A stretch of 64,000 nucleotides of DNA from positions 117,888 through 181,887 of the forward strand of contig CAVVWM010000011.1 in the NCBI GenBank assembly GCA_963751955.1. The letters run 5' to 3'. The notes under the pieces are model-generated. The model was not told where the DNA came from and did no database searches. It saw nothing but the letters and a program-made list of their open reading frames with translations. Made by a program: the position numbers and the translations under genes. This stretch comes from an uncultured Acidimicrobiales bacterium (lineage in GTDB: Bacteria > Actinomycetota > Acidimicrobiia > Acidimicrobiales > SZUA-35). This document shows, in pieces, positions 29,640 to 51,277 of this stretch (its first letter is position 1; each line of letters starts with the position of its first letter).

Positions 29640-30481
29640 CGTTCACTCTCCGGACGGGCTTCGAGCCGAGCCTTCGGAATAGCAACGTTATCGACATAGC
29701 AGAAGCCGTAGGTATCACCGTCTATTCGAGCGACCGCCTCGTCGATCATTTCTATGTGCTCTAGACGACCCTTGCGCTCGGCAACCAGTTCAGAGATCTG
29801 AACATTGATGCTCGTACCTTCGTTCGATTCGTCGCTGGAGGTGTCATCGCCCGCCTCTGCGGTCTCGAGCAAGAGATCAAGTTGGGCACGGAACTCGTCA
29901 ACTTGTTCGGCCAGCTCCTGCTTTTCGTCCTCAAGTTGGCTTCGCCGGATCGCCAACCACTTCTTGTCCTTCAGGTATGCGGGCTTCAGGCCAGCATTCT
30001 TGGGAGCCGATGTAGACTTTTCTTACGTGCTGCAGCTTTGACGACGGGGGCAGCTGCGGCCTTCTTCTTTGCCGGCGCCTTCCTCGATGGTGCGGCCGCC
30101 TTCTTGGCAGAAGTTGTCTTGATTACTCGGTCGGCCTTTGGTCCTGCCGCCTTCTTGACCGGAACCTTCTTGGCCGGAACCTTCTTGGCGACAGCCTTCT
30201 TCTTGGCCGGACCTTCTTGCGACAGCCTTCTTCTTGGCCGGAACCTTCTTGGCGACAGCCTTCTTCTTGGCCGGAACCTTCTTGGCCACAGCCTTCTTCT
30301 TGGCCGGAACCTTCTTGGCCACAGCCTTCTTCTTGGCCGGAACCTTCTTGGCCACAGCCTTCTTCTTGGCCGGAACCTTCTTGGCCACAGCCTTCTTCTT
30401 GGCCGGAACCTTCTTGGCCACAGCCTTCTTCTTGGCCGGAACCTTCTTGGTCGCCTTCTTTGCGGACTTTTTGGTCGTCAC
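29594..30481 (-). CDS. DdbA-like fusion: histone-H1-like Lys/Ala N-terminus plus DksA/TraR C-terminal domain; split by three apparent 1-bp deletions
   Basis: GTG at 30481 begins ([11 protein letters not shown])n. Restoring bases at about 30219, 30211 and 30020 gives one ORF of about 296 aa ending in [16 protein letters not shown]...[10 protein letters not shown]...CVDH. It lies between ileS and lspA, as Streptomyces SCO2075 does. Confidence 0.8.
30152..30449 (-). repeat. 33-bp coding tandem repeat ([11 protein letters not shown]): seven intact copies, one damaged copy and partial copies
   Basis: The unit ttcttcttggccggaaccttcttggc(c/g)acagcc is read directly. The copy at about 30188-30218 is 31 bp. 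Confidence 0.95.
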
Positions 30482-30632
30482 CGGTAAGCCTCGGATCGCT
30501 TTCGATAGCTTCGAACCCGGCCGATTCCACCGAGTTCTTCCTAAGAATCGGCGTAGCATAGTCGAAACTGAGGTCTAAGTTCACCCCTTTGACCCCACAA
30601 TCTGTCGCCGTGAGCCCGTTAGCCTCTCTCAG

Positions 30633-33805: not shown

Positions 33806-35932
33806 CTATTTGTTGCGTCTGCCGAACCAGCCGCCGCCACTTTCTTTCTCACCTTCTTCGCTCAGAAACCGATTGAGAGTTTCGTCGTCAGATCCGGCTT
33901 GTTCGCCGTCTGTCATCTGACGAAGCTCATCGAGAAACGGATCATCGGGGGGAAGATCTTCGAGGCGAGCATCGGGGTGAGGCGGTCGGTCGGGATCGGG
34001 TACCGACCACTCTGAGCCACCAACGGTGTCCGACGGGAAAGCTGGTGTCGAGTCGACCGCAAGCTCCTCCACCTGGGGCGGCGATGGAAAGCCAGGTTCA
34101 GACTCCGAAACGAAGGTCGCCACGGCATCGGCGGTCGGTGCCGGCGGAAAAGCGGGCGGAGCATCGAACGACTGGGTGGGCAATGCAGGCTCCTGAACCG
34201 GTGGTGGCGGCTCTAGGAATGACGATGCCGACTCTGAGTCCGGGGCTTGATCAGTAGGGGCGAACTCTGGATCTACCTCTCGACTCGACTCAGGTACCGC
34301 TGTGTCCCGCAACCTCGAGACGCGGCTCGCCAATCGGTTTCGGGCCTGTTCGGCGAGACCCCCGAGGCCTAGCTGGGCGTCCTCGGCGGCGGGCTCCTCG
34401 GCGAATGGCGACTGGACGTCGATCCCCAAACCATCGGGATCGGACTCCGGCGCTTCGGCAGCGGTGGGTAGATCGGAATAGGCCGACGGGTCGGCCGTTT
34501 CGGGGACAGATGAGAAGACAGAGTCTGGAGTGACCGACGCTGCGATCGCGGCTCCCGATTCAGGTTCGGAGTAACCGCCCGTGGCAAACGGATTTTCGTC
34601 TGCGACTCCGAACCCAGCACCGGTCTCGGGGTCCAAGCTTCGCTCGGACTCGTTTGTGAACGGCTCCCAGTCTTGAGACCCCAAGGCGAGACCCGACTCC
34701 CCAGCAGCTGCGAAGGGGGTTTCAAGCTCGTAGGCCGATTCTGCATAGGATTCCTCGCTGACAGTCGCTGCAGCGAAGTCCTCGGCCGGACTCGTCTCCG
34801 CGTACTCTCCCGACGTCGAGGTGTCCGCGTACTCTCCCGGCGCCGAGGTGTCCGCGTACTCTCCCGGCGTCGAGGTGTCCGCGTACTCTCCCGGCGTTGA
34901 GAGGGTTGAGAACGGACCGGCATCCTGGATCTCGCCGGTGAGACCCTCGCCGTCGGCTTCTACAAAAAGAGACTCTTCGGCTGAAAATTCTTCGCTAAGT
35001 GGTTGTGGGTCTTCCACCGTCCCCACAAGCTCGGGCTCAAGAGCGGGATCGAACTCGGGCTCGGTGAAGGCAAAGTCTGAAGCTTGCCGTTGTGCCGCCT
35101 CTACCTCTGTGCTGAGCGTGCCTATGGAGTAACTGTCGATGGACAGCGTGGTGAGCTCTTCAGGGTCTAGAAGTCCGATCTCTGCTGGCTCGGGTATTTC
35201 GGCCTCGGCCAACAGTTCCGGATCATCCAAGACTGCGTTGAGTTCGGTCAGCGCGCTGCGTACATTCTCGCGGCGTCCTTCCAAGAATTGCTCGAACCGT
35301 TGCACGTCGGCACTGAGGTCATCACGGCTTCGTTCGAGCAGGGAAATCTCCGAGAGCAGTTCGTTCCGACGAATCCCCTGTTCAGAGAGGAGCTCTTCCT
35401 CGATCGCAGCTTTGCGAGTTTCGGCATGTTCGAGCGCATCAGCCAGCAATTGGGCCCGTTCGGCCTCGGCATCGGCCAGCATCTGTTCTCGTTGGGCGTG
35501 GGCTTCACCCTTGAGTTCTTTGGCCTCGGCCCGTGCTCCGGCCATGATGGAATCGGCCTGAGCGACAGAACTACCCCGTAGCTCCTCGGCGCCTTTTTCC
35601 GCTTCGCGAATGGTCTGATCGGCTGTTCGTTGGGCCAGAAGAAGTGTGTTGCGTAGCGTCTGGTCGAAATCACCGTCCGGAGCTTGGGTGTGTGCAGCGT
35701 CGTTTGCGCCCATGGCCTGTCCAGCGATAGCACTGGCGCGATGAGATGCCTCGTCCGCCCGTTCGTTCGCCTCATTGAGTTGTTGCTCCAATGTCTCGAT
35801 CTCATCGGCCAACGGCGCCAAGGTGTCAAGAACACGGTCGACCTGAGACTTGCTGTATCCACGCATCTCTTCTTCGAACTTGACAGTCGGAATCTGGCGC
35901 AGAAGACGCAATTTGTCGCTACCAACACTCAT
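33806..35932 (-). CDS. divIVA: DivIVA/Wag31 family protein with a very long acidic low-complexity C-terminal region
   Basis: N-terminal F..EMRGYSKSQVD.VLD, LLLAQRTADQ coiled coil, and position after yggT/sepF at the end of the dcw cluster. Confidence 0.88.
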   Translation of the reverse strand: MSVGSDKLRLLRQIPTVKFEEEMRGYSKSQVDRVLDTLAPLADEIETLEQQLNEANERADEASHRASAIAGQAMGANDAAHTQAPDGDFDQTLRNTLLLAQRTADQTIREAEKGAEELRGSSVAQADSIMAGARAEAKELKGEAHAQREQMLADAEAERAQLLADALEHAETRKAAIEEELLSEQGIRRNELLSEISLLERSRDDLSADVQRFEQFLEGRRENVRSALTELNAVLDDPELLAEAEIPEPAEIGLLDPEELTTLSIDSYSIGTLSTEVEAAQRQASDFAFTEPEFDPALEPELVGTVEDPQPLSEEFSAEESLFVEADGEGLTGEIQDAGPFSTLSTPGEYADTSTPGEYADTSAPGEYADTSTSGEYAETSPAEDFAAATVSEESYAESAYELETPFAAAGESGLALGSQDWEPFTNESERSLDPETGAGFGVADENPFATGGYSEPESGAAIAASVTPDSVFSSVPETADPSAYSDLPTAAEAPESDPDGLGIDVQSPFAEEPAAEDAQLGLGGLAEQARNRLASRVSRLRDTAVPESSREVDPEFAPTDQAPDSESASSFLEPPPPVQEPALPTQSFDAPPAFPPAPTADAVATFVSESEPGFPSPPQVEELAVDSTPAFPSDTVGGSEWSVPDPDRPPHPDARLEDLPPDDPFLDELRQMTDGEQAGSDDETLNRFLSEEGEKESGGGWFGRRNK
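34793..34900 (-). repeat. 27-bp coding tandem repeat, four copies (STPGEYADT), in divIVA
   Basis: Translation STPGEYADT-STPGEYADT-SAPGEYADT-STSGEYAET. Confidence 0.93.
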
Positions 35933-35982
35933 GGCCTCAGCCTAGTGGTGTCGAAGCCTTCGATCAGGTAAGAAACGCTGAT

Positions 35983-36243
35983 TCAGCGACAGAAGACTGT
36001 TTGCAGCACGATGAGCGCGAGGAAGACCACAATGAAGTCGGCTCCGATGCCCCCGGCGGCTCCCGGCATCGGCGGCACAGCTCGCCGCAGTGGCATCATC
36101 ACCGGCTCGGTAACGCTGAAGGCAAGCTCGCGCACTTGCATCATGATGCCATCGGATCTTGCCGGGAAGAATGAGAGCGCAATACGAACATAGAACGCTA
36201 GGGAAAACACAAGGATGACGGTGCACAGGAGCGAGGAGACCAT
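35983..36243 (-). CDS. yggT: YggT/YlmG family membrane protein
   Basis: VRI.LSF, TEPV..PLRR.VP and D...V motifs; lies between sepF and divIVA. Confidence 0.9.
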   Translation of the reverse strand: MVSSLLCTVILVFSLAFYVRIALSFFPARSDGIMMQVRELAFSVTEPVMMPLRRAVPPMPGAAGGIGADFIVVFLALIVLQTVFCR

Positions 36244-37034
36244 CAGCGTTCGAAACCGCGCTCTTGCATCCGCCTTCGATCCTCATCGCTTACACCGACC
36301 CCCGCAGGTGTAAGGAGGTACACGTTGGCTGCGACTCGCTCCATGCCGCCGGCGAGTACGTAGCAAACACCACTTGCGAAATCGACGAGGCGGCGGGCGA
36401 CCGGCTTGTCGACGGCGGTGAGGTTCATCACCACCGGTGCACCGGCTCGAAAGTCATCGGCTATCCGACTGGCGTCTTCGAACGAGGACGGAATGTGCAA
36501 ACGAGGTTTGGCGTGCGTGACCACGTTGAACTGGGGCTCCTCAGTAGATGGGCTAGAGCTCTGTCTCGAGGCTCCGTCGATTACGCTCACCGTGGCGGTG
36601 GCTACTGGTACCTCACTGGGCGCAGAACTGGCTGGCATCGGTGAAGTCTGCGACACCGTTACCCCCGTCTCGGCACCGTGGTTGTCGGCGGGAATGGCAG
36701 ACTCGAGCGCAACGCCCGAACCGGGCTCTCGCACCCGATGATCCACTCCAGCCGTCGGGGACAGTCCAGCTAAGGCGTCGGGAACGGCTAGACCGTCCTG
36801 TTCCACCGGGCGAAGCGGGCGCACCGCACCGACCCCACCCATCTCGTTCATCTCGCTGTCTGCACTGAATCCGAAGGAGGTCTGATGATCAGGGAGGCGA
36901 TCATCGAGCGCGATGTTCTTGTTGCGCCCCCGAAGAGATCGCTCATCTTCTTCGTCGTAGTACGTCTCATCGTCGTACATCTGGTCGTCGTCATCGAGTC
37001 CCAGAAACGCCATGACATTCCGAAACACAGCCAT
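36243..37034 (-). CDS. sepF: Cell division protein SepF
   Basis: Amphipathic MAVFRNVMAFLGL start; C-terminal P.SFEDA..IAD......PVVMNL and RRLVDFASG..Y...G motifs. Confidence 0.92.
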   Translation of the reverse strand: MAVFRNVMAFLGLDDDDQMYDDETYYDEEDERSLRGRNKNIALDDRLPDHQTSFGFSADSEMNEMGGVGAVRPLRPVEQDGLAVPDALAGLSPTAGVDHRVREPGSGVALESAIPADNHGAETGVTVSQTSPMPASSAPSEVPVATATVSVIDGASRQSSSPSTEEPQFNVVTHAKPRLHIPSSFEDASRIADDFRAGAPVVMNLTAVDKPVARRLVDFASGVCYVLAGGMERVAANVYLLTPAGVGVSDEDRRRMQERGFER

Positions 37035-37140
37035 GGACGGTCCTTTCACAACAGAGGTAGCGGATAACCGGGCCGAGGCCCGTTGCCACCGTAGCCTCTC
37101 AGATATCATTCGGCGGGGCAATCTCAGAGCGGACGACGGG

Positions 37141-37785
37141 TCAAGGGCGAGGACCGAAGATCGCCGAGCCGACGCGAACCACGGTCGATCCCTCTGCAAT
37201 CGCCAACTCGAAATCGCCACTCATTCCCATCGAACAGACCTGCAGCCCATGTTCATCAACTGCGGCACGGCACCGCGCGAAGACGGGTCGAGGATCCACA
37301 CCGATATCGGTGAAACCCATGGTCATGAGACCTTGGACGTCAAGTCCGCAGGCGACACCGGAATCCACCAGCGACCCAATCTCGGACGGAGCAACTCCCG
37401 ACTTGGTGTCTTCTCCAGTGAAGTTGACCTGGATCAACACTGATGCCCCCGGCCGTCTCTTGGCGATTTCCTCCAGGACCGCTATGCGATCGACGCTGTG
37501 CCAAAGGTCGACGATCGCCGCGATTCTCTTGATCTTGTTGCGCTGCACTGGTCCGATCATGTGCCACCTGGGTGACAGCTCCCGTTGGGCGAGGTTGGCG
37601 GCCTTGGCAGCCAACTCTTGTGCGTAGTTTTCGCCGAGATCTTGACAACCTGCCAGAACTGCTTCGGCGGCGACATCAGCGCTGAAGCGTTTCGTAACCG
37701 CCACCAGTTCGACGTGCTGATCCGGGGCACAGGCGGCGTCTATTCGCTGCTTGAGGGCGACAAGCTGCTCGGAGATCGGTTCCAT
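37141..37785 (-). CDS. yggS: PLP homeostasis protein YggS/YlmE
   Basis: LVAVTK, LGENYAQE, WHMIG.VQRNK, GLMTM, SMGMSGDFE.AI.EGST.VRVGSAIFG motifs. Confidence 0.95.
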   Translation of the reverse strand: MEPISEQLVALKQRIDAACAPDQHVELVAVTKRFSADVAAEAVLAGCQDLGENYAQELAAKAANLAQRELSPRWHMIGPVQRNKIKRIAAIVDLWHSVDRIAVLEEIAKRRPGASVLIQVNFTGEDTKSGVAPSEIGSLVDSGVACGLDVQGLMTMGFTDIGVDPRPVFARCRAAVDEHGLQVCSMGMSGDFELAIAEGSTVVRVGSAIFGPRP

Positions 37786-37790
37786 TGCAC

Positions 37791-38504
37791 TCAAGTATGG
37801 AACAACTGGGCCATCGTCAACATCCGACCAGTCTTGCGAACGCCAACACCGGTGCGATGACTGAAGTAGACCCGCCCTGCCGTGCTCGGCGGACGCTGTG
37901 GCGGAGGGAAGCCCGAGCGATCCAATGCGCAGGAAACACCGGCGAAGAGATCGAGCGCGGTGGTTCCTTTGGTTGTGTGCGATCTCACCGCGTCTCCGTA
38001 GGTCGCAGCAATCGGCTCGAGGTCCCAAGCGGAGAACTCGTAGTGTTCGGGCGCAATACAAGGGCCGCAGAACGCATAACGTCGACCCTCGGGAACAGCG
38101 CTTATGACCATTTGTGCGCCCTTCTCGATGATCCCCGCCATGAGCCCCCTCCATCCGGCGTGCACGACTGCGAGCGCTTGGGTGTGAACATCCGAGGCCG
38201 CCATCACGATCGGCGCGCAGTCCGCCGTAGTGACGGCCAGCGACACGCCGAGTTCGGTTGTGAAGGCACCGTCGGCCTCGATGCCGGCATGCTCGCCCGG
38301 GCGACTGACCGTGACGATCGTGTTTCCGTGGACTTGACGCAACCACGTCACGTCGGCAGTCGGTGCCGAGAACCGCTTCAGGTTGTGGGCGAATGTGGAC
38401 TCGGTGACCCGCAATGAACCGTCGTTCCGGTCCGAGGTGCGGATCAGGATCTCAGTGCGGTTGAGCCCTTCGACGTCGAGGCCTTCGACGATGCTACGGG
38501 CCAC
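37791..38504 (-). CDS. pgeF: YfiH/YlmD (PgeF) family purine nucleoside phosphorylase
   Basis: QVHG, ADG, TADCAP, HAGWRG, GPCI and YFSHR motifs; immediately downstream of ftsZ. Confidence 0.93.
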   Translation of the reverse strand: MARSIVEGLDVEGLNRTEILIRTSDRNDGSLRVTESTFAHNLKRFSAPTADVTWLRQVHGNTIVTVSRPGEHAGIEADGAFTTELGVSLAVTTADCAPIVMAASDVHTQALAVVHAGWRGLMAGIIEKGAQMVISAVPEGRRYAFCGPCIAPEHYEFSAWDLEPIAATYGDAVRSHTTKGTTALDLFAGVSCALDRSGFPPPQRPPSTAGRVYFSHRTGVGVRKTGRMLTMAQLFHT

Positions 38505-38516
38505 GTTGGCCCAGCC

Positions 38517-39680
38517 TTATTTCAGGAAGCTGGGAACGTCGAAGTCGTCGTCGAGGTCATCGTCGTCGTTGGCGAAGACATCGATGGCTTGACGGGTACG
38601 TCCGTGATCGGCCGCGCTCGAGGATTCGTCGAGGAAAGCGTCGTAACGGCCTCCAGCCCCAGCGTTCGAGCTCGCCCGGGATGCGCCGCCACCGGCAGTG
38701 CCGTAGTTGATGGTCCGGTCGGGGCTGGGCTCCCCGTCCCAGCGATCGAATCCAGCAGCGATCACCGTCACACGGATCTCTTCACCCATGTTCTCATCAA
38801 CCACGGTTCCGAAGATGATGTTGGCTTCAGGATGGGCAACGTCGTGGATGATCTCAGCGGCCTCGTTCACTTCGAAGAGCCCGAGCTCGCTGCTTCCGGC
38901 GATGGACAACAGGATGCCCCGTGCGCCCTCGATGGAGGCTTCCAGCAGCGGACTGGCGATCGCTGAACGGGCTGCGCTGAGGGCTCGTCCTTCGCCGGCA
39001 GCCTGCCCGATTCCCATGAGGGCAGAGCCAGCATCGGACATGATCATCCGAACATCGGCGAAGTCAGTGTTGATGAGCCCTGGCGTCGTGATCAGATCGG
39101 TGATTCCTGATACTCCGGAGAGGAGAATCTCGTCGGCCATCTTGAAGGCATCGATCATGCTGGTGCGTTCGTCGGCGATGGACAGCAGACGATCGTTGGG
39201 GATGACTATCTGAGTGTCGACCTTCTCCTTGAGTCGAGCGATACCACTTTCGGCTTGGGTGGCGCGACGCCGACCCTCGAACCCGAAAGGACGCGTGACA
39301 ACTGCGATTGTGAGCGCGCCCTGGCTCTTGGCGATCTCAGCGATGACCGGAGCTGCGCCGGTTCCGGTTCCGCCGCCTTCGCCGACGGTAATGAAAACCA
39401 TGTCACCGCCTTCCATGGCGGCAGAGATCTCTTCCCTGTGTTCTTCCGCGGCTTGCTGTCCGATCGCTGGATCAGAGCCAGCGCCAAGCCCGCGGGTCAG
39501 CTCGCGGCCGATGTGAATCTTGGTCTCCGCATCGTTCATGAGCAGAGATTGGGCGTCGGTGTTCACCGAGATGAACTCGACACCGCGCATTCCAGCGTCG
39601 ATCATCCGGTTGACGGCGTTACAACCACCGCCGCCGATACCGACGACTTTGATGACCGCCACATAATTCTGTGTGTTCAT
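38517..39680 (-). CDS. ftsZ: Cell division protein FtsZ
   Basis: [17 protein letters not shown], tubulin signature [15 protein letters not shown] and C-terminal DVPSFLK. Confidence 0.99.
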
Positions 39681-39900
39681 TCCGATGCGAGTCCTTATCT
39701 CCGGTTATTCATGGGTTCCATTGGTGATGGACAGATCACAGGGTGTAACGCTAGTGCGTAGCGAGGTGCTTCGCAGTGCTCTCGGCAAGAGCGGGTGCAT
39801 GGACTGCCATTCCCAAGGCTTCAGCTGAGAAGTTCCTGTGAATGACGCACATCAATCGATGTGCATATCCGTGAACGATGTCTTGCTTGAACACATATTC

Positions 39901-40934
39901 CTATGAACACTGTGTCAGATCGGCCAGACCGTCCCGCGGATTACCTTTTTCACCAATTCTTGACACAGCGGGAGCCGAAGGAACAGTGAGGTCGATCTCA
40001 TGAACGCAGCGCAAATCAACCGAAAGCAGCAGCGTCTCGAGGCTCACGACCTTGGCTGCGAGGTCGTTGTCGTCGCCGAGCAGAGCCCGACCCCCGGCCT
40101 CCAGGCGCAGGGCCAATTGATCTCCGGTGACGATCACCTCGGTGACCGCAGCCCTCACCGGTGGCGTGATCTCGTTCATGAGCCGGAGGACCGCAGTGGA
40201 TCCCGGGGGGCAGGATCCCCGGGTACGCCGGTCGCTTCGAGCCCGATAACCGGGAGAAATCCATCGGGGGGGATTTCGGTGGTCCGAACCTGCCGACCGT
40301 CATCGTCCACGAGTACGAACCGGTCACCGGAGCGCAGCGCCATCGTGGGCTCACGTTCGGTGACGGTGATGTCGATGCGGCCGTTGAGATTTCGAATCAC
40401 GGTGGCCGACCGGATTTCAGGAAGTGCCTGCACCCGCCGTTCGGTTGCCTCGACAGGGAGGTCGAGTATCGGTGTCCCAAGAGGTACCGCAGCTGCATCG
40501 AGGATGACCGATTCATCCAACATGTCGGCCCCTCGCACCGACACACTGTCGATCGCCATCAACGGCGATCGAATCAGGCCGATTCCGGCGGCTGCGGTCA
40601 GCGACAATGCGAGGAGAACAACGACGACGCTCTTGCGGCGCTGCCTGCGGACCTTTCTCACCTCCTCGGCGCGAGCGGTGAGATTGCGGGCCCCGACCTG
40701 TGACCGACCGCCGATCTGGTGCCCGGCTGAGGTGCGCGGTTTGGATTTGGTTTTGGCAGAGCGCTTCTTGGCGACTGTTCCCGATCGTGCTCGAGCGCTG
40801 GCAGCCGCCTTCTTGGCCGCACGCTTCTTGGGGACAGCCGGCTTTCTTGAGTTCGCCTTTTTCTTCGCCACCTTTCTCTTGGTGGCAGCCTTCTTTGCCG
40901 CCTTTTTCGGACGTTGCCTGGTGGAGGAAGTCAT
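39901..40934 (-). CDS. ftsQ: Cell division protein FtsQ/DivIB with a Lys/Arg-rich N-terminal tail; frameshift in the G6 run at 40205-40210
   Basis: Single TM, POTRA domain (I..V.V.G; LP.I..A.V.R; I.VTER.P) and position between murB and ftsZ. Adding one base joins ORF 39901..40179 (IDLTVPSAP). The ATG overlaps the murB stop. Confidence 0.88.
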
Positions 40935-41932
40935 CGTGTGCCTTTCGCCCCTGCGACGTCGGCGTCGTTGGCGTCGTTGGTGTCGAAGCCGATCAGACGG
41001 TTCTCGACCTTCAACTCCACACCAAACTTCTCGAGCACTCGTTGCTGGACGATTTGGATCAACGCAGCGATGTCGTCGGCACTGCCGCCGGGCTCGGCTT
41101 GGATGAAGTTGGCGTGTTTGTCCGAGACCCGTGCGGTCCCAACCCCGAAACCCTTGAGTCCACACTCATCAATGAGGCGACCGGCGGAGTCTCCTGGCGG
41201 GTTGGCAAACACCGAGCCTGCGTTCTGGCCCCCGGGCTGGTTGGCTCTGCGCCACGCCACGATTTCTCGGAGTTCTGCCTGGCCATCGTGTTGACCAGCC
41301 TCCTCAAGTTCCAACTCGGCAAACAACACCACGTCGTCAGACTTGATGTTGCTCTGCCGGTAGCCGAAGTCGCAGTCTTTGGCAGACCACAAGGTTGGAC
41401 CCCCCGACTCCATGTTGAATACAGACACATTGCGAATCGAAGCCGCCATGTCCGAACCGTGGCCTCCGGCATTCATCCGCACGGCTCCGCCAACTGTCCC
41501 AGGAACGCCGACGGCCCACTCGAACCCGGTGAGGCCTGAGGCGACGAGTCGCCGGGCTACACGCGGCAGCATGCATGCGCCGCCGACAACGACTTGGCTG
41601 ACGCCACGCACCGGTTTGCCAATCTCCATTGATGAGAAGGCCTCACCGAGCTGAAGCACGACACCTGCGAAACCGTGATCACTGACCAGCAGATTGCTCC
41701 CGGCGCCAACAACCAAGAACGGCACGCCGCTGGGTGTGTGTAGTCGAACAGTCTCGAGATCTTGCACCGACTCGACCTTCACGAGGACAGACGCCGATCC
41801 TCCGACGCGATAGGTACTCAGATCGCCTACCGAACCGTTGCGTTGGGCCCGATCCGGCAGGTATTTGATCAATTGAGCCACGAAGTCGTCGCCTTCTGTA
41901 GCCACTCCATTGCCCAGGTTGCCGCTAGCCAT
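40931..41932 (-). CDS. murB: UDP-N-acetylenolpyruvoylglucosamine reductase
   Basis: [42 protein letters not shown] and S.KHANF motifs. Confidence 0.96.
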
Positions 41933-43322: not shown

Positions 43323-44452
43323 CAGAGAGCCGAGTCTTGCAGATGAGAGTGGACGAGTAGCGCCACCTCGTGAGCGGCGCGGGCGTGGTCGACAGTAGGA
43401 ATCGCCTCCCGCATCTGCCTCCGCCGGTCCGACTCGAGGAGCGGTGACAGATTTGTCTGCAAGTACTCACCTGACAGCTCGGCGTCATCCAAGATGATCG
43501 CTCGGCCGACACTCTCCAGTTCTTTCGCATTCGCGAGCTGGTGCTGGCGTGGGGCGCTCGGCAGCGGCACGATTGCAGCCGGCAGTCCCGCGACGGCCAA
43601 TTCAGCGATCGTGCTGGCACCGCCCCGGGTCAGGGCGAGGTCCGCACCCATCAGCAGGCTAGGCATATCGGTCTCGTAGGGAACGGTGATATACCGATCG
43701 CCCGAACCCGTCTGGAGCGGACGCAATGCATCTGGGTTCCTCCGGCCGACTACGTGATAGATCACGACATCGTCGCGATCGGACCACAACTCGGCCAGCT
43801 CCCGAACCGCGGAGTCGATGCTCCCCGCTCCGAGAGAACCAGCCCAGACGGCAAGGAGGCTCGTGTCGTCCTCGACAATACCGAGCTTGGCCCGAGCACT
43901 GCGCCGGCGCTCCGGTGATTGGTCAGACAACGCTTCCGCCACAGCGCTGCGGATCGGATTGCCGGTGAGCACTCCATCGGGCAGGTCGGTCGGTGGGAAC
44001 GGCAGAGCACAATCCGCGGCAAAGCGGCCAACAAGCCGGTTCACTGCGCTGGCCCGTGCGTTCTGTTCGGTGACAACAACCGGAATACCCAGGGTGCGGG
44101 CGGCCACGCTCGGTCCGAACGCTGCGAATCCGCCGAGGCAAACAACGACCTCAGGGTTTCGGCGCTTGACAAGCGATCTGGCCCGAGCCTGACCCCAGAG
44201 GAGTTCACCGATGCTCTTGATGGCGGCCAGCCCGATCCGGCGCGGTATTCCGCGACCGGGCAGGGTGTCCAGCGAAAACCCGGCCTCGGGTACCAGCGTT
44301 GCCTCGTTGCCGCGGGTAGAACCCACGAAACCGATGTCATCTCGGGAAAGACCCATCGCCACGAGGGCCTCCGCAACCGCGATGCCAGGATTCGTATGAC
44401 CCGCTGTGCCCCCTCCAGCGATGAGGACCCGCCTGTGGTCAGGCTCGGCCAC
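43322..44452 (-). CDS. murG: Lipid II GlcNAc transferase MurG
   Basis: AGGGTAGH..PG, GGFA, EQN, GNPIR, GSLGA, RGGASTIAE and HQ.ANA motifs. Confidence 0.96.
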   Translation of the reverse strand: MAEPDHRRVLIAGGGTAGHTNPGIAVAEALVAMGLSRDDIGFVGSTRGNEATLVPEAGFSLDTLPGRGIPRRIGLAAIKSIGELLWGQARARSLVKRRNPEVVVCLGGFAAFGPSVAARTLGIPVVVTEQNARASAVNRLVGRFAADCALPFPPTDLPDGVLTGNPIRSAVAEALSDQSPERRRSARAKLGIVEDDTSLLAVWAGSLGAGSIDSAVRELAELWSDRDDVVIYHVVGRRNPDALRPLQTGSGDRYITVPYETDMPSLLMGADLALTRGGASTIAELAVAGLPAAIVPLPSAPRQHQLANAKELESVGRAIILDDAELSGEYLQTNLSPLLESDRRRQMREAIPTVDHARAAHEVALLVHSHLQDSAL

Positions 44453-46248
44453 GGCGAGCTACTCCAACCAGGAGTCCACTGGCGAACAGTGTCGTGACCA
44501 GACTGGATCCACCCGCAGACACGAACGGCAGTGGTTCCCCGGTAATCGGCATCAGTCCCAGTGCCATACCGATGTTCAATGTGGCCTGGGTGACAATCCA
44601 GATCGTCAGGCCGGCAGCAAGATTGCGGCCGAACGCATCCGGGGCCCGAAGAGCCGCCGTGAAACCCAAGTAGCCGAGAAGGCCGAACGCAACCACAAGA
44701 GCAAGCGCACCGATTGCGCCCAGCTCCTCTGCAACGACAGCGAAGATGAAGTCGGTCTGCGCTTCGGGGAGGAACCCCCATTTGGCTCGACTTCCGCCCA
44801 GTCCCCTGCCGAACAGGCCGCCCGAAGCAATCCCGATCTGGCTCTGAACAGTCTGAAGTCCGATGCTGTCTGCGGTGGCCCATGGATCAAGGAACGCAAA
44901 CACACGCGCCCTTCGATAGGGAGCGCTGTAGGCCAGAACTGTTGCGCCGGCCAAGCCGCCCAGCGCCCAGCCGACAAGATGGGGCAGTCGGGCCTTGGCG
45001 ACGAACAACATCAGTATCGCCACCGTGCCCATGATGATCGGTGTCCCCAGCTTGGGCTGCAGGATCAGTAGGAACGAATACAGAATCACCAGTGCGAGCA
45101 CTGGCCGAATCGTCCGTTCGGGAAGGTGCATTTGGTGCTCGCGGGCTCCAAGAATCCGCGCCACCATCAAGATCAGTGCAAGCTTTGCCAGCTCTGCGGG
45201 TTGAATCACGACAGGTCCGATTGCGAGCCACCGGCTTGATCCGTTGGCTGAGGAACCGACACCCGGTATGAGAACTGCCAGGAGCAGCAACGCGCTCGAA
45301 GATCCCCGCAGGGATAGCGAGCGGAGCAACCCGGCGATAGTTCACCCGGCTACCCACGATGAACGCGGCTGCCCCGATGACTGCATACCGAAGCTGACGG
45401 GAGAAGGTGTAGAACGGCGATTTGTCGAACTTGTGGACCGATGAGACAGATGTTGCCGAAAGCACCATCACCAGACCGAACAAAGTCAGCCCAATGACCA
45501 AGATCGTGATCGACCATCCGGCTCGCTCACCCACGGCTGTAGCTGCCAGCTTATGCGTCCGATGAGGGCGCCACTGAGCCGCTCGCCGGAACCGATGCAC
45601 AAGCGAATCTCTCGCTCTACCTCCGCCTCGTGGGTGACGGTTTGGGGAAGACCGACGGGCCGGCGAAGCTGCTCGGCTCGAACCGAGATGACGGGATTTG
45701 TTTGACGGTCGACGATCGGGGACCGACGTTCTCTTGGCTTTGAGCGGTGCGGACCGCTTGGCACCTTTGGTGGGTGCCGACCGTTTGGTTGCCGCAGACC
45801 GTTTGGTTGCCGCCGACCGCTTGGTGGGTGCCGACCGTTTGGTTGCCGCCGACCGCTTGGTGGGTGCCGACCGTTTGGTTGCCGCCGACCGTTTGGTGGG
45901 TGCCGACCGTTTGGTTGAAGTTCGGGCAGTTGCAGCGGCTTGGGTTCTGGCCCTCGCAGCTTTGGCCGAGGCACCACGTTTGGCAGTCTTGAGATGATTG
46001 CTTGTGGTTCCGCGTGCTGAGGTTGCCTTGGTAGACCTTCGTTTGCCAGGGGCAGCATTTGCGACCTTCTTGGCCCCTTGGCGCGATTTCGTCTTGGGTG
46101 TTCGCTCGCCGCTCACCTGCTGCCGCCGCTGACGATCAGCATTTTGGGCCCGCTCCTTAGATGCGTTCTTACTCGCCGCCTTCTTGACCGTCTTTCGAGC
46201 GGCGCGTTTCTTCGCTGCAGCGGGGGTAGGGCGTTGGGTCGTGATCAT
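44439..46248 (-). CDS. ftsW: SEDS peptidoglycan polymerase FtsW with a polybasic N-terminal extension of about 240 aa; frameshift near 45305
   Basis: GLVMVLSA, NGSSRW, IQPAELAK, QPKLGT, Q..QS..GI.SGG.FG.GLG, LPEAQTDFIFAVVAEE and LPFVSAGGSS motifs. The ATG at 46248 overlaps the mraY stop (ATGA). Confidence 0.92.
45772..45915 (-). repeat. 18-bp coding tandem repeat, eight copies (TKRSAP/TKRSAA), in the FtsW N-terminal tail
   Basis: Read in ORF 44887..46596: TKRSAP TKRSAA TKRSAP TKRSAA TKRSAP TKRSAA TKRSAA TKRSAP. Confidence 0.95.
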
Positions 46249-47306
46249 GGGGTCAGCTCCACTGCGCCGACCCAGTCGGCGTAGAACAACCCAAGCGCAA
46301 CGGCGGTGAACCCGCCGGCGATGAGCCAGAACCGAACGATGACCTTCGTTTCCGCCCAGCCCTTCAATTCGAAGTGATGATGGACCGGTGCCATACGGAA
46401 CAATCTCTTGCCCTTCGTGGCCTTGAAGTAGCCAACTTGCAGCATCACCGAGAGAGTTTCGGCCACGTAGATTCCTCCAATGATGGGCAGCAGCAGGTGG
46501 GTATTCAGGAGGAGGGCGAGGACTGCAAGCCCGGTTCCTATGGCCAAGGACCCCGTGTCCCCCATGAAGATTTCGGCTGGGGCGGCGTTGAACCACAAGA
46601 ATCCAGCTAGCGCGCCAACCATTGCGACGGCGACAACGGCAAGGTCGAGCGCGTGGGGGACGTCGTAGAGCATCGGTCGGGTTTCAGCCTGTCGGAAGAT
46701 CCAGAATCCGATGAGTACATACGCCGCAAACGAGAAGATCCCCGAGCCTGCGGCAAGTCCATCGAGACCGTCGGTCAGGTTCACTGCGTTGCTGCTACCG
46801 ATAATGAGCAGCACGGCCCAGAGGATCCAGCCGGCCGTGCCTAGGTCAAAGTCTGTGTAGCGTGTGAAGGAGAGCTCAGTTCGGGTTCCCGTCCAACCCC
46901 GTTGTGCGGCAAACATGGCGCCGCCAGCGAAAGTTACGGCAACTGCCACCAGACCGCCCATTTTGGTGCGACTCGTCAAACCGAGGTTTCGTTCCCGCGA
47001 CACCTTGATCCAATCGTCGAGAAAACCCACCATCCCAGCTCCGACAATCGCTCCGATCGCCAGTAGTCCCGAGACCGTGAAGATGCCGCCGATGAGGAGG
47101 TGGCTGAAGAAGTAGCCCGCCACGGCACCGAACACGATGGCGATCCCACCCATTGTCGGGGTTCCGGCTTTGACCTGGTGACCCTGCGGACCGTCGGTTC
47201 TGATGGGCTGCCCGATGTGCCGCTTGAGAAGCAGGTCGATCAACAGACGAGCACCAAGGGCGCTCAGCGCGAAGGCGATACCGGCTGCGGTAAGAAGTCG
47301 AATCAC
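46245..47306 (-). CDS. mraY: Phospho-N-acetylmuramoyl-pentapeptide transferase
   Basis: GQ.IR.DGP..H..KAGTPTMGG, GFLDD, SNAVNLTDGLDGLA, IFMGDTGSL and FRMAP.HHHFE motifs. Confidence 0.98.
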   Translation of the reverse strand: MIRLLTAAGIAFALSALGARLLIDLLLKRHIGQPIRTDGPQGHQVKAGTPTMGGIAIVFGAVAGYFFSHLLIGGIFTVSGLLAIGAIVGAGMVGFLDDWIKVSRERNLGLTSRTKMGGLVAVAVTFAGGAMFAAQRGWTGTRTELSFTRYTDFDLGTAGWILWAVLLIIGSSNAVNLTDGLDGLAAGSGIFSFAAYVLIGFWIFRQAETRPMLYDVPHALDLAVVAVAMVGALAGFLWFNAAPAEIFMGDTGSLAIGTGLAVLALLLNTHLLLPIIGGIYVAETLSVMLQVGYFKATKGKRLFRMAPVHHHFELKGWAETKVIVRFWLIAGGFTAVALGLFYADWVGAVELTP

Positions 47307-47310
47307 GCCG

Positions 47311-48717
47311 TCACCACCCAGCGCTTTGAAGCGCGGCCACGGCTGCCAGACGATCGTCGAAGTCGATGACAGCTGTGCCTACGGTCTGAGTGGTCTCATG
47401 ACCCTTGCCGGCGATCAACACCACATCGCCAGGCTTGGCACCTGCGACAGCCGCGTCGATTGCGGCTTGCCGATCGGGCTCCACCACAAGGGAGCTGCCG
47501 TCTGGGATTCCAGCAACAATCTGCTCGATGATGAGGTCTGGGTCTTCGCTACGTGGGTTGTCCGATGTGACAACCACTCGATCAGCATCTGCCGCAGCGA
47601 CGGCTCCCATGAGTGGCCGCTTGGCCTGGTCGCGGTCTCCGCCACAGCCGAAGACCACAGTGACGTGTCCATCGGTGGAAACTGCGGTTCTGCAGGCAGC
47701 GAGGGCCGCGTGGATGCTGTCCGGTGTGTGGGAGTAGTCGACGACGACTCGAAACGGTTGTCCGATCGAGACCCACTCCATACGCCCTGGCACCGGATCA
47801 ATCGCCCCGAGGGCGTCTGCGACGTCGTCGGCGTCAAAACCGATCGTGTCGAGGATCGTGGCCGCACAGACGGCGTTTGAGACGTTGTGGGCGCCAGCCA
47901 GTTGAAGCGTTACCGGTCGACCCTGCCAGTGGAAGTGGCTCGTAGGCCCATCAAGGGTGAGCTCGGCTGCATCGGTGAGGGAGTAGGGCCTTGCGTCTGT
48001 ACGTCGCGCGAGCAGCGTGCGCCCGTGCTCATCGTCGGCGTTGATGACCGCACGCATGGACAACTCGGGCTGGAAGAGGCGCGCCTTGGCGGCGAAGTAG
48101 TCGTCCATGGTGGAATGAAAATCCAGGTGGTCTTGGGAGAGGTTGGTGAAGGCCGCTACTTCGAACCTCATGCCATTCACGCGGTGCAGCTCAAGTGCGT
48201 GGCTTGACACCTCCATCGCAAGATTCCTGACTCCCCTACTGCGCAGGCCAGCGAGTTTGGCGAACAAGTCCGGGGCCTCGGGTGTGGTGCGAGCCCCGGT
48301 CAGCGTGCCGAGCACCTCAACTGACTGGCCGAGTTTGGTCAGCATCGAGCCGAGCATGTGGGTAACTGTTGTCTTGCCGTTCGTGCCGGTGACGCCTATG
48401 ACAGTCACGTTCAGTTCAGGATGGCCATAGACCGCAGCCGCCGCAGGTCCCATTGAGGCACGGCTGTTCTCCACGAGAATCTGAGGACAGTTGATCTCCA
48501 GGTCACGTTCAACCAGAAGGGCAGCAGCACCGCTATTGAGGGCCGCCGCTGCAAAGTCGTGCCCATCGGCGTTGTCACCTGGAATGCAGGCGAAGATCGC
48601 CCCAGGCTCGACCGAACGCGAATCGTGGGCGATGCTCGTCACCACATCGGAATTGCCCGTTAGTCTGCCACCGATTTCTGAAGCCAGGCTGTCCAGCGCG
48701 ATTCCGATGGTGCTCAT
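47311..48717 (-). CDS. murE: UDP-MurNAc-tripeptide synthetase (meso-DAP type)
   Basis: DSR, GVTGTNGKTT, TTPE, MEVSSH, TNLSQDHLDFH, VDYSHTPD, FGCGGDRD and AGKGHE motifs; DNPR motif indicates DAP specificity. Confidence 0.97.
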   Translation of the reverse strand: MSTIGIALDSLASEIGGRLTGNSDVVTSIAHDSRSVEPGAIFACIPGDNADGHDFAAAALNSGAAALLVERDLEINCPQILVENSRASMGPAAAAVYGHPELNVTVIGVTGTNGKTTVTHMLGSMLTKLGQSVEVLGTLTGARTTPEAPDLFAKLAGLRSRGVRNLAMEVSSHALELHRVNGMRFEVAAFTNLSQDHLDFHSTMDDYFAAKARLFQPELSMRAVINADDEHGRTLLARRTDARPYSLTDAAELTLDGPTSHFHWQGRPVTLQLAGAHNVSNAVCAATILDTIGFDADDVADALGAIDPVPGRMEWVSIGQPFRVVVDYSHTPDSIHAALAACRTAVSTDGHVTVVFGCGGDRDQAKRPLMGAVAAADADRVVVTSDNPRSEDPDLIIEQIVAGIPDGSSLVVEPDRQAAIDAAVAGAKPGDVVLIAGKGHETTQTVGTAVIDFDDRLAAVAALQSAGW

Positions 48718-50714
48718 TCCCCTCCCTCGGATAGGTCGAGGCTCACCACATTCGGCTCCGGTGAGCTGGGCTCGGCGGGGTCGGGCGGGTCAGTCTCAGC
48801 CGGCTGTTCGATCACTGCGGGCGGATCGGCATCGATCGTCGTCTCGATCGCGGTATTCGTTTCATCTGGGGATGTTGCAGCCGTTGGAGCCGGGGAATCG
48901 GTGGGGTCCTGGCCACGCGGTCCATCCTCGGCCAAGGCGGGGGTACCTCGGACCAGGGCTCGTTGCTCGCGCCAACCTGGTTGATCATCGCCTCCAGCCG
49001 GTGCGATGTTGAGGACTCTGAGTGCGTACTGAGCGATTTGGGCGAACGTTGGAGCGGCAGCGGTCGTTGCGCTCGTTGCCGTTCGTGGTTCGTCAATCAC
49101 CAGTACAACCGAGAGCTCGGGCGCTTCAGCGGGCACCAGACCTCCGAAGGTCGTGAGGTACCGACGATCTTGGTCGGTGCCATAGGTCAGGCGCCCGCTT
49201 CCGTTGTCGAACACCTTCCAGGCCGTGCCGGTCTTGCCGGCAACCGTGTAGCCCTCGATTTGGGCTTTTGCCCCGGTTCCGTCCTCTCCTGTGACGGCGG
49301 TCAGCATCGTCAGCGTTTCGCTGGCGGCTTCGGGACTGATGACACGTCGCCTGTCTTCGTTCTCTGCCGGTTCGGCTACGAGCCGTAGAGGCGTATACAA
49401 ACCATCATTTCCCACAGTGTTGAAGGCGCTTGCAAGCTGCATCAGGTTTACCGTCATGCCCTGACCGATCACGATGGAGCCTGCGTCACTACCCAGCCAC
49501 TCACTGGGAGATCGAAGAACACCCGTCGACTCGCCCTTGACGCCTAGACCGGTCAGCTGACCAAAACCGAAGCCGGTCGCATAGTCGTAGTAGACCTCTT
49601 TTCCCATTTGTTGAGACAACGTGATGGCGGCAACGTTGCTTGACTGGCCCATTGCATCGGCTAGCCGCATGAGCTGGTCGTCGTGGCTCGGATGATCGAA
49701 GAAGCGTTTGTCAGAAACCTCGATCGATCCCGGGACCATCATCTGGTCGTCGGCCTTGTAGCCCAGCCGATCCGCTGCTGCTGCAAAGGACACGACCTTC
49801 ATCACAGAACCCGGTTCAAAGGTGTCGATGGCGGCCTTGTTGTACGAGGCCACACCGCAAGTGGTTTCGCCGGTGCGTTCAACCGACGCCATCGCATAGA
49901 CCTCGCCGGTCGACGGATCGCTCACGATCGCAGATGCCCCCTGGGCTCCTAGCTTCTCGCAGGTGTCTTTCAGGATTGCCTCGGTACCGAACTGGACGCG
50001 GTGGTCCAGCGTGAGTGTCAGGTCGAAACCACGCTCGGGCAGCTGAACCGAACGCTCACCCACGCTGATCGATCCGAACCGTCCTCGCTCGAAACGCTCG
50101 ACACCTTCGGTTCCGCGCAAGATCTCATCGAATTGGAGTTCGATACCGGACCGGCCAACTTCATCGGGATCGACCCGACCGATGACAGGCCTGGCCAACT
50201 CGCCGGCGGGATACAGCCGATCCTCCTCGGGTCGTATCACAATGCCGCTGAACGCCTTGGAGGTTTCGCTGTCAGCAACCAGTGCGCGGATGCCGGCCAG
50301 TGCTGCGGCGTCAGCCGTTGTGGCCACGACGTTGTATCGATCCTCGGGTGAGGACGGCAGCAGACGAGTCTCGAGGTCAGAGGCGTCCCGGCCTAGCTGA
50401 GGAGCGAGCAGCGCAGCAGTCCATTCCGGGTCTTTCACAAGCTGGGGATCAGCGATGATTTGTTGGGTTGGGGTGCTGGCTGCGAGCACGAAACCTTCAC
50501 GATCCAGAAGCCGCCCCCGGAATCCGGGGAGAGTCCGTGTGGCAGTGCCCTGATCGTGCGCCAGGCTGCGATAGCGCTCCGGGCGAACAGCCTGGAGGTC
50601 GATCAGCTGGGCGGCATAGATCACCATCACGACAAAGAAGACGGCCAACACGGTAAATAGCTGCGGATGTTCTGCGAAAAGGACTCGTGTCGAGCGAGTC
50701 TTGGCGCGGCTCAT
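48714..50714 (-). CDS. ftsI: Class B penicillin-binding protein FtsI
   Basis: N-terminal TM, RG...DR, R.YP.G, G..GIE, and catalytic SVMK (SxxK), SSN (SxN) and KTG motifs. Confidence 0.95.
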   Translation of the reverse strand: MSRAKTRSTRVLFAEHPQLFTVLAVFFVVMVIYAAQLIDLQAVRPERYRSLAHDQGTATRTLPGFRGRLLDREGFVLAASTPTQQIIADPQLVKDPEWTAALLAPQLGRDASDLETRLLPSSPEDRYNVVATTADAAALAGIRALVADSETSKAFSGIVIRPEEDRLYPAGELARPVIGRVDPDEVGRSGIELQFDEILRGTEGVERFERGRFGSISVGERSVQLPERGFDLTLTLDHRVQFGTEAILKDTCEKLGAQGASAIVSDPSTGEVYAMASVERTGETTCGVASYNKAAIDTFEPGSVMKVVSFAAAADRLGYKADDQMMVPGSIEVSDKRFFDHPSHDDQLMRLADAMGQSSNVAAITLSQQMGKEVYYDYATGFGFGQLTGLGVKGESTGVLRSPSEWLGSDAGSIVIGQGMTVNLMQLASAFNTVGNDGLYTPLRLVAEPAENEDRRRVISPEAASETLTMLTAVTGEDGTGAKAQIEGYTVAGKTGTAWKVFDNGSGRLTYGTDQDRRYLTTFGGLVPAEAPELSVVLVIDEPRTATSATTAAAPTFAQIAQYALRVLNIAPAGGDDQPGWREQRALVRGTPALAEDGPRGQDPTDSPAPTAATSPDETNTAIETTIDADPPAVIEQPAETDPPDPAEPSSPEPNVVSLDLSEGGE

Positions 50715-51277
50715 GGGCCCACTGGCCGGGTTGCCACGAGGTACACGGGGCGAACAGCCCGAACCATTCCCAGACGACGAGCTCGAGCGACGATCACCTC
50801 AGGAGACGAAGCTTCGACAACCTGACGGTCGAGGAGCGCAAGATCGTTCTCAAGTCGGTTTGTTTCAGCTTGGATTCGGTCGGTTTCAGCCTGAGTTTGC
50901 ACCAACTGCGCCTGCACCAGTGCTGCTGCAAAGAAGGCACCGACCAGGAGCAGGAGCGAGGCGAACACCAGCCGGCGACGGCGGGTTCGACTCCGCAAGG
51001 CCCCGACGTCTATCAGAAAGAGCGGACCACGGACACTTGTGTTGCGAGGGGACCCCGTGCGCGTCTGGGATGCGTTCTTCTTCGTCGTGTCTTTGCGCGA
51101 CACCCCTTTGGTGGCGCTCTTTCTTCGCCCAGCATGTTGTGCTTTGCCAGCTCTCGCCGTTGTTTTGGACGGCGGCTTCTTGGACGGCGGCGTCCTGGAC
51201 GTCGACGAGGTCCGTTTGGCCTTGTTCTTGGCACCGGTCCCTTCGCTACGGGGTGAGTCCATCTTCAGCGCATTCAT
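50711..51277 (-). CDS. ftsL: FtsL-like septal protein with a basic N-terminal tail
   Basis: Lies between rsmH and ftsI; single TM, then coiled coil and SP..I...AR.LGMV motif. Confidence 0.8.
   Translation of the reverse strand: MNALKMDSPRSEGTGAKNKAKRTSSTSRTPPSKKPPSKTTARAGKAQHAGRRKSATKGVSRKDTTKKNASQTRTGSPRNTSVRGPLFLIDVGALRSRTRRRRLVFASLLLLVGAFFAAALVQAQLVQTQAETDRIQAETNRLENDLALLDRQVVEASSPEVIVARARRLGMVRAVRPVYLVATRPVGP

Follow-up and report, generated by a model that had tools for sequence, protein, structure and literature searches.

Long basic N-terminal tails on the divisome proteins FtsW, FtsQ and FtsL of an uncultured marine Acidimicrobiales bacterium

In the dcw gene cluster of an uncultured marine Acidimicrobiales genome (3.74 Mb in 17 contigs, 89% complete), three membrane proteins of the divisome, FtsW, FtsQ and FtsL, begin with long polycationic tails. 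The cluster lies in a 64,000-nucleotide (nt) stretch, contig C11:117888-181887, which was analysed as a whole and is called the window hereafter. An initial annotation of this DNA had pointed to long K/R/A/S/T-rich segments ahead of the first transmembrane (TM) helix of each of these proteins, and such segments are indeed present, with measured lengths of 241, 99 and 100 amino acids (aa), respectively. The genus has these tails throughout; in the other family members they are shorter and vary, and in other Acidimicrobiales families and in diverse bacteria they are nearly absent. No other membrane protein of the genome comes close to carrying such a basic segment before a TM helix. To judge from sequence, the tails are almost certainly translated, and they are predicted to be cytoplasmic and disordered. 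Our preferred reading, which we hold tentatively and give nearly even prospects, is that they serve as a non-sequence-specific polyanion tether with nucleic acid as the first partner.

Composition, translation and genomic specificity of the tails

The tails, the elements within or next to them and the genes that carry them have the following positions in the window.

45526..46248, minus strand: FtsW N-terminal polycationic tail, 241 aa before the first TM helix (K30 R41 D3 E3; net charge +65)
40638..40934, minus strand: FtsQ N-terminal polycationic tail, 99 aa (K20 R16 E2; net charge +34)
50978..51277, minus strand: FtsL N-terminal polycationic tail, 100 aa (K13 R14 D3 E1; net charge +23)
45766..45917, minus strand: tandem repeat of 18/36/54 nt in the FtsW tail, encoding TKRSA(P/A) units; the periods are multiples of 3
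50975..50992, minus strand: FtsL juxtamembrane SRTRRR, residues 96-101, which fits the GpsB recognition motif (S/T/N)RxxR(R/K)
44439..46248, minus strand: ftsW (SEDS glycosyltransferase), Pfam PF01098 in two frames; its ATG at 46248 overlaps the mraY stop
39901..40934, minus strand: ftsQ (POTRA), POTRA_1 43.6 bits (cut-off 23); its ATG at 40934 overlaps the murB stop
50711..51277, minus strand: ftsL, bitopic with a coiled coil, between rsmH and ftsI; its ATG at 51277 overlaps the rsmH stop

FtsW matches PF01098 (FTSW_RODA_SPOVE) in two pieces, with 285.9 bits over model positions 75-353 in the open reading frame (ORF) 44439-45329 and 29.6 bits over positions 5-64 in ORF 44887-46596, and its gene has the placement expected for FtsW (mraY-ftsW-murG). 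The POTRA_1 domain of FtsQ follows a single N-terminal TM helix, and the gene is located between murB and ftsZ. FtsL scored 26.1 bits (E 7.6e-6) against Pfam DivIC (PF04977), below the cut-off of 28.9; this was the sole DivIC-like match genome-wide, and the core of the protein is conserved in an alignment of 30 orthologues.

Together, K, R, A, S, T and P make up 70-78% of the window's tails, hydrophobic residues 6-11% and acidic residues 2-4%, and the share of Lys is 14.3% in the tails versus 1.7% in the non-tail dcw proteins. All three tails contain the lysine-repeat pattern given in the available part of PMC5714199, i.e., 1-3 K/R spaced by 2-9 neutral residues, in three or more repeats over a length of 17 aa or more, with K and A each contributing no less than 10%. 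The longest such stretches are 69 aa (FtsW), 38 aa (FtsQ) and 40 aa (FtsL), and the three tails contain 12.4, 20.2 and 13.0% K and 20.7, 20.2 and 10.0% A, respectively. It had been proposed that the tails share the vocabulary of DdbA, which is true of FtsQ and of the opening 30 residues of FtsW, but not of the remaining FtsW tail, which is built of TKRSA(P/A) repeats. At E<=1, the histone H1-like Pfam family HC2 (PF07382) matched none of the three tails in the window, and the term 'histone-like' is therefore compositional only. The FtsW tails of four relatives exceed the HC2 cut-off (42.3-72.1 bits vs 40), and a precomputed HC2 match exists for 11 of the 22 closest long FtsW proteins of public collections, where these proteins are labelled merely 'putative lipid II flippase FtsW'; the HC2 family is itself compositional. 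In an AlphaFold2 model of FtsL made with 30 sequences, residues 1-80 are without secondary structure (mean predicted local distance difference test score, pLDDT, of 46-58), and residues 91-156 form a single long helix (pLDDT 93-98).

Ser and Thr account for 16-26% of the tail residues and frequently stand beside K or R. Phosphorylation is known for the cytoplasmic tail of mycobacterial FtsQ and for DivIVA/Wag31. These features would suit an alternative in which the tails, rich in Ser and Thr, are platforms for regulation, with actinobacterial Ser/Thr kinases tuning their charge, and act as switches more than as tethers. However, composition alone is not diagnostic. Such a role would be compatible with the tether model, and we consider a regulatory platform very improbable.

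The proximal, membrane-adjacent sequences of FtsL and FtsQ are conserved in their own right. Immediately ahead of the TM helix, the FtsL proteins of the family have in common a cytoplasmic motif, [LI][RK]V[VI]D ... R-RRR, which is kept as SR[TA]RRR in the 7 genus rows of the alignment, and family FtsQ proteins have a comparable DPR..ARR..V.R...RRR stretch. The long tails are insertions on the N-terminal side of both motifs.

All three ATG starts in the window overlap the upstream stop codon as ATGA. Among 77 genomes of the order, a 4-nt overlap of the start with the upstream stop was observed for 59 of 73 FtsW, 42 of 62 FtsQ and 30 of 49 FtsL genes, regardless of tail length, with the start taken as the one chosen at the operon junction. 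The synonymous codon use of the tails resembles that of neighbouring genes. G+C content at third codon positions (GC3) matches the neighbours for the FtsQ and FtsL tails and is lower in the FtsW tail (0.58 vs 0.66-0.72), for which GC3 is uninformative as a test of frame.

Alternatively, the tails might not be made at all, if translation began immediately ahead of the TM helices, in which case the sequence before them would be an untranslated spacer or an artefact of an indel-prone assembly. In-frame GTG/TTG codons are present 3-25 codons ahead of the TM segments, and given these codons, minor short isoforms that lack the tails may exist. The low GC3 of the FtsW tail also speaks for this alternative, as do single-base frameshifts in at least four genes of the window. 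Relative to the intact gene of a 96%-identical relative, ftsW is split by a 1-nt insertion near 45297. A 1-nt deletion in the C-run at 40206-40212, located against the intact genes of relatives, splits ftsQ, which was recovered by tblastn as two pieces in different frames, the C-terminal part resuming in another frame after the run. Likewise, ileS (about 32950-33093) and a ddbA-like gene (about 30200) read in two frames. These four interruptions are probably assembly errors. The conserved overlaps at the operon junctions argue against absence of the tails, and in independent assemblies (8 genus members and about 50 family members) the frame is open and in register with the TM domain despite many indels. 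Moreover, a late start would leave a 720-nt untranslated gap in an otherwise overlapping operon, and the long proteins are also what the gene callers of public databases predict. We regard it as extremely improbable that the tails are not made.

One of the window's frameshifts sits in a run of six C, and their pattern suits an assembly prone to indels. Elsewhere in the genome, about 60 consecutive Lys codons at C16:3433-3813 form a long A-rich, homopolymer-like stretch that is probably an assembly artefact.

Basic segments before TM helices were sought in all six frames of the whole genome; a segment had to span 90 aa, have a net charge of +18 or more, contain no more than 6 acidic and no more than 16 hydrophobic residues and immediately precede a TM-like window. 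Exactly three matches were returned, FtsQ, FtsL and FtsW, a count that should not be over-read, as the thresholds were chosen with the targets known, after a stricter 60-aa version of the scan. The stricter version returned FtsQ and one unannotated Arg-rich frame (C2:121758-123071) and missed FtsW and FtsL. Lys-rich basic low-complexity frames numbered 43 in the six-frame translation of the genome, and the FtsW tail is the longest among them. Fourteen of the 43 were searched against Pfam, with in-window frames, duplicate frames, ribosomal proteins and the poly-Lys artefact left out. Domains that handle nucleic acid were found in 8 of these 14 (NYN+S1, DEAD/helicase twice, HhH, SRP54, topoisomerase C-repeat, Ku and Jag_N); the others are one HC2-like frame, two other enzymes (M48 and WS/DGAT) and three frames without a Pfam match. 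The NYN ribonuclease with an S1 domain (C11:515100-516923) ends in a 180-residue tail of (T)KKAAPKKAA repeats, the second longest Lys-rich segment of the genome. The Lys-rich tail is C-terminal in the WS/DGAT wax-ester synthase (C11:328736-330577) and N-terminal in the M48 peptidase (C11:764329-765603).

Distribution and turnover of the tails

The survey of orthologues that the initial annotation had suggested drew on 20-kb dcw regions of 8 members of the genus, about 52 further members of the family and 16 other families of the order, and tails were measured with one script. It bore out the presence of tails throughout the genus, and it revealed a co-variation among the three tails that is weak. 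Median length and net charge in the genus were 215 aa and +65 for FtsW, 98.5 aa and +33 for FtsQ, and 78.5 aa and +19 for FtsL. The corresponding medians were 83 aa and +22, 47 aa and +10, and 44 aa and +11 in the rest of the family, and 36 aa and +7, 68 aa and +7, and 53 aa and +9 in other families of the order. For diverse bacteria, a broad sample that does not consist of close relatives and serves as background only, the median lengths among the matches listed were 18.5 aa for FtsW (70/80 loci), 32.5 aa for FtsQ (18 loci) and 41 aa for FtsL (31 loci). Within the family, the tails range from 28 to 326 aa for FtsW (28-298 aa in the filtered summary) and from 18 to 187 aa for FtsQ. An unverified FtsW tail candidate of 301 aa, after a 134-nt gap that follows murD, was seen on a 3.3-kb contig of an Acidimicrobiales metagenome-assembled genome (L040).

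The sequence of the tails turns over rapidly while their composition does not. Compared with the nearest relative, the cores of the proteins are 93-99% identical, the FtsW tail 31% and the FtsL tail 43.5%; in another close pair the tails are 58-70% identical, and the repeat units differ from species to species. The basic density of the tails nevertheless stays at about 0.2-0.33 (about 0.3 in the genus), an indication of selection on charge. The share of Lys among the basic residues drops as G+C rises (rho -0.59), and since basic density remains constant, it is charge, not Lys, that is kept. The initial annotation had argued for selection from Lys enrichment against the high-GC bias; the enrichment is real, but Lys itself is not conserved.

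We analyzed the relation among the tails in 56 genomes by independent contrasts on a six-protein tree. For net charge, the correlations were r=0.24 (p=0.07) between FtsW and FtsQ, 0.46 (p=0.002) between FtsW and FtsL, and 0.20 between FtsQ and FtsL, with sign tests that were not significant; for length, they were 0.27, 0.33 and 0.51, respectively. Strong co-evolution of FtsW and FtsQ, for which a first small sample had given a rho of 0.79 for net charge (n=20), was abandoned in the light of the larger set. Weak co-variation is what a loose constraint would give. All three tails are expanded together in two separate lineages, the genus and the relative L017, which has the longest tails of all (298, 136 and 108 aa for FtsW, FtsQ and FtsL), and in several other lineages FtsW alone is expanded.

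These patterns bear on an alternative in which the tails are largely non-adaptive repeat inflation without a specific partner and are at most spacers or weak binders of anionic lipids. Replication slippage would add repeats ahead of the first TM helix, behind a start codon held in place by translational coupling, and the positive-inside rule would tolerate only basic or neutral polar sequence in this cytoplasmic segment. The species-specific repeat units, the several-fold length differences between close relatives, the low identity of the tails next to nearly identical cores and their weak co-variation are all consistent with inflation, as are the fixation of the start at the upstream stop in most genomes and a Lys/Arg ratio that simply tracks G+C. 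However, inflation leaves unexplained why, among all membrane proteins, only three partners of one complex carry such tails, and why all three expanded jointly in the genus and again in the separate L017 lineage. In addition, an acidic share of 2-4% and a basic density of about 0.3, maintained despite near-complete turnover, argue for purifying selection on composition. We consider inflation unlikely as the full explanation, though it retains a sizeable part of the probability.

The dcw cluster and its acidic proteins

Other features of the window that enter the argument are the following.

38520..38570, minus strand: FtsZ acidic C-terminal peptide, 17 residues, D/E-rich
36942..36995, minus strand: SepF acidic stretch DDDDQMYDDETYYDEEDE, residues 14-31, directly after the N-terminal MAVFRNVMAFLGL helix (sepF, 36243-37034)
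33809..35182, minus strand: DivIVA acidic low-complexity region, residues 251-708, net charge -85 (divIVA, 33806-35932)
29594..30559, minus strand: ddbA-like gene, which encodes Lys-rich repeats (33 nt x 8.7) and then a DksA-like C-terminal portion; the frameshift is inside the repeat

The cluster reads rsmH, ftsL, ftsI, murE, mraY, ftsW, murG, murC, murB, ftsQ, ftsZ, pgeF, ylmE, sepF, a small ORF and divIVA on the minus strand, with ileS, the ddbA-like gene and lspA beyond divIVA, a neighbourhood shared with Streptomyces. Pfam assigns FtsW, the FtsQ POTRA domain, FtsZ, SepF and DivIVA in the window, and the ddbA-like gene was named after the architecture of DdbA as described in the available part of PMC3643593. 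In all genus members murD is missing between mraY and ftsW (window 46245-46250), a position at which the rest of the family retains it, and the murD profile TIGR01087 gave no match above cut-off in five genus genomes. A divergent MurD-like ORF (97 + 62 bits) is present on contig C2:205937-207166, and murF is found away from the cluster (C11:279619-280845). A decayed murD was ruled out as the origin of the FtsW tail: family members that keep murD also have FtsW tails, of 28-298 aa, which start at the murD stop.

The initial annotation had reported that ftsA is lacking from the cluster, and a whole-genome NCBIfam search likewise found no FtsA above cut-off in this 89%-complete genome. The sole weak FtsA-family match is an MreB-like gene (C11:237963-238556) near a second SEDS gene (C11:233162-234037), and given this pair, the organism may have a lateral elongasome besides DivIVA. 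MinD and Noc were not found above their cut-offs in this genome either. The Noc profile TIGR04285 gave a single match of 235.5 bits (cut-off 315), and as this score is below the cut-off and the gene adjoins a ParA-like gene, the protein was taken to be ParB.

The acidic strings that had been quoted for SepF and FtsZ were found as written; in FtsZ, DDDD-L-DDD precedes FDVPSFLK. A D/E-rich stretch with FDVPSFL[KR] occurs in FtsZ across the order, and the acidic linker of SepF is conserved to the same extent. DivIVA is 708 aa long with a net charge of -110, and its residues 251-708 contain 101 D/E. The initial annotation was right about the length and acidity of this region, described as about 450 aa of Glu/Asp-rich sequence, but the region is acidic and P/S/T/A-rich, not 'polyacidic'. 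An acidic DivIVA region is present family-wide, in proteins of 366-714 aa. Family DivIVA proteins end in a conserved GGWFGRR[KR] (window 33806-33830) that follows a variable acidic region of 116-464 residues and looks like a putative short linear motif. Within divIVA, a 27-nt x 3.9 tandem repeat (34797-34901) encodes TPGEYADTS units.

An alternative to a nucleic-acid tether is that docking on acidic Z-ring proteins is the main function of the tails, which would recruit FtsQLB-FtsWI to FtsZ, SepF or DivIVA and so replace the FtsA link; such docking might take the form of a fuzzy complex or condensate. There is precedent in Mycobacterium tuberculosis, for which the available text of PMC3989709 states that FtsZ requires four C-terminal Asp to interact with FtsW; a role as stand-in for FtsA/ZipA has been proposed for FtsW (PMC3989709 and PMC9939409, as far as available). 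The Asp cluster of the window's FtsZ and the lack of an FtsA match above cut-off fit this picture, and the C-terminal region of FtsZ has a median net charge of -13 in the family versus -6 in 5 measured genomes of other families. However, the acidic FtsZ end and SepF stretch are order-wide and occur also in genomes with FtsW tails of 11-48 aa, and these acidic features thus predate the tails. We observed no relation between FtsZ C-terminal charge and tail charge, either in raw values or in independent contrasts (r -0.05 to -0.06, n=26-45). The length and charge of DivIVA are related to the tails through the genus alone, with no relation outside it, and L017, in spite of its tails, has a DivIVA of 409 aa, among the shortest. 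Finally, the window's FtsW has no C-terminal extension, ending in ...GVARRGRA at 44439 with an overlap of the murG start (44452). Docking as the main function appears unlikely to us. The same results do not support the charge-patterned divisome that the initial annotation had put forward as a candidate system: the acidic end of FtsZ and the SepF linker are present whatever the tail length, the DivIVA region is a trait of the family, and the case for co-adaptation of the tails and acidic partners as one system is weak.

A possible tether and its relation to known systems

If the tails are a polyanion tether, as we tentatively prefer, they would project into the cytoplasm from the septal wall-synthase core (FtsQLB-FtsWI), where they would lengthen and shorten by in-frame repeat slippage and be kept only as 'basic, non-acidic, non-hydrophobic' sequence. 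They would hold the membrane complex against nucleic acid, either the nucleoid or RNA, and secondarily against the acidic FtsZ, SepF and DivIVA segments, and the assembly site of the late divisome could thereby be coupled to DNA position in a lineage without FtsA, MinD or Noc. We infer both the binding and any role in division. The tether is favored because such tails are otherwise found mostly on nucleic-acid-binding proteins in this genome, because Streptomyces TopA provides a precedent and because FtsA, MinD and Noc gave no matches above cut-offs. According to the available part of PMC5714199, TopA of Streptomyces is stabilised on DNA by lysine repeats, which DNA-binding proteins of Streptomyces carry more often than expected.

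Several observations weigh against a selected nucleic-acid tether: the lack of HC2 matches for the window's own tails, the in-frame GTG/TTG codons and the short isoforms that they may allow, the modest charge contrasts among the three tails and the wide spread of tail lengths within the family. The specificity of the tails was derived from a single genome scanned whole, by a rule set with its targets in view, and similar tails are present on two proteins without a link to nucleic acid, the M48 peptidase and the WS/DGAT enzyme.

In a more elaborate version of the proposal, the tails would be a built-in nucleoid sensor, with DNA and the acidic Z-ring proteins competing for the polycationic brush in place of Noc/SlmA/Min and FtsA. 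DNA would hold the tails over the chromosome; in the gap that is free of DNA, the acidic membrane-proximal segments of FtsZ and SepF (and of DivIVA) could capture them. We think it quite unlikely that the tails work in this way.

In mycobacteria, the extension of FtsW is C-terminal. Corynebacterium and Collinsella FtsW have C-terminal extensions in which Arg and acidic residues are mixed, and their N-termini are only ~50 aa long. In contrast to the mycobacterial type, the extension described here is N-terminal, 241 aa long, almost without acidic residues, built from repeats and paralleled on FtsQ and FtsL. The M. tuberculosis FtsW-FtsZ pair is alike in that it also belongs to actinobacteria without FtsA, with an Asp cluster just before the C-terminal peptide of FtsZ and a long charged cytoplasmic extension on FtsW that could bridge the Z-ring and the septal synthase (Datta et al. 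2002, 2006; Rajagopalan et al. 2005; described in the available parts of PMC3989709 and PMC9939409).

Lysine-repeat or histone H1-like tails of TopA, HupB/HupS, Ku and DdbA, as described in the available parts of PMC5714199, PMC5676037 and PMC3643593, share with the tails reported here both composition and the habit of repeating K/R spaced by A, P, T or S, and the same genome carries such tails on TopA, Ku, the DdbA-like protein and RNA helicases. The known carriers, however, are soluble proteins that bind DNA or RNA and have a folded nucleic-acid-binding domain, to which the tail is an addition, whereas the carriers here are integral membrane proteins of the divisome without such a domain. 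The Bacillus subtilis protein Noc brings DNA to the membrane (PMC4331003), and if the tails bind DNA, they would resemble Noc in that one polypeptide joins membrane and chromosome at or near the division machinery. Unlike Noc, the tails have no ParB fold, specific DNA site or amphipathic helix, and the candidate DNA binder is located on the synthase itself, not on an inhibitor.

A third comparison concerns the GpsB/DivIVA adaptors, which recognise Arg-rich cytoplasmic mini-domains of penicillin-binding proteins and FtsZ through the motif (S/T/N)RxxR(R/K), according to the available text of PMC11062636. The likeness consists of the FtsL SRTRRR directly before the TM helix and of a DivIVA-family protein encoded in the same cluster. 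However, the match comprises six residues in an Arg-rich juxtamembrane stretch that the positive-inside rule would yield anyway, the GpsB groove is a feature that actinobacterial DivIVA is not known to share, and the motif concerns the membrane-proximal residues and not the long tails.

We found no description of Lys-rich or histone-like N-terminal tails on FtsW, FtsQ or FtsL in the literature, although the supplement of PMC5714199 (554 Streptomyces lysine-repeat proteins), which lay outside the search, may name such proteins. The components are of known kinds, as charged cytoplasmic extensions occur on divisome proteins of actinobacteria and Lys-repeat tails on proteins that bind DNA; new are their combination, their size and their restriction to the FtsQ-FtsL-FtsW core.

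The lineage thus offers a natural experiment on the recruitment of the late divisome and its exclusion from the chromosome, with tails of the same kind as those of actinobacterial topoisomerase I, HU and Ku. If the tails bind nothing, they would be a clean example of repeat slippage inflating essential membrane proteins under a purely compositional filter. If they bind DNA or the acidic Z-ring proteins, they would represent a simple, charge-based coupling of wall synthesis to chromosome position.

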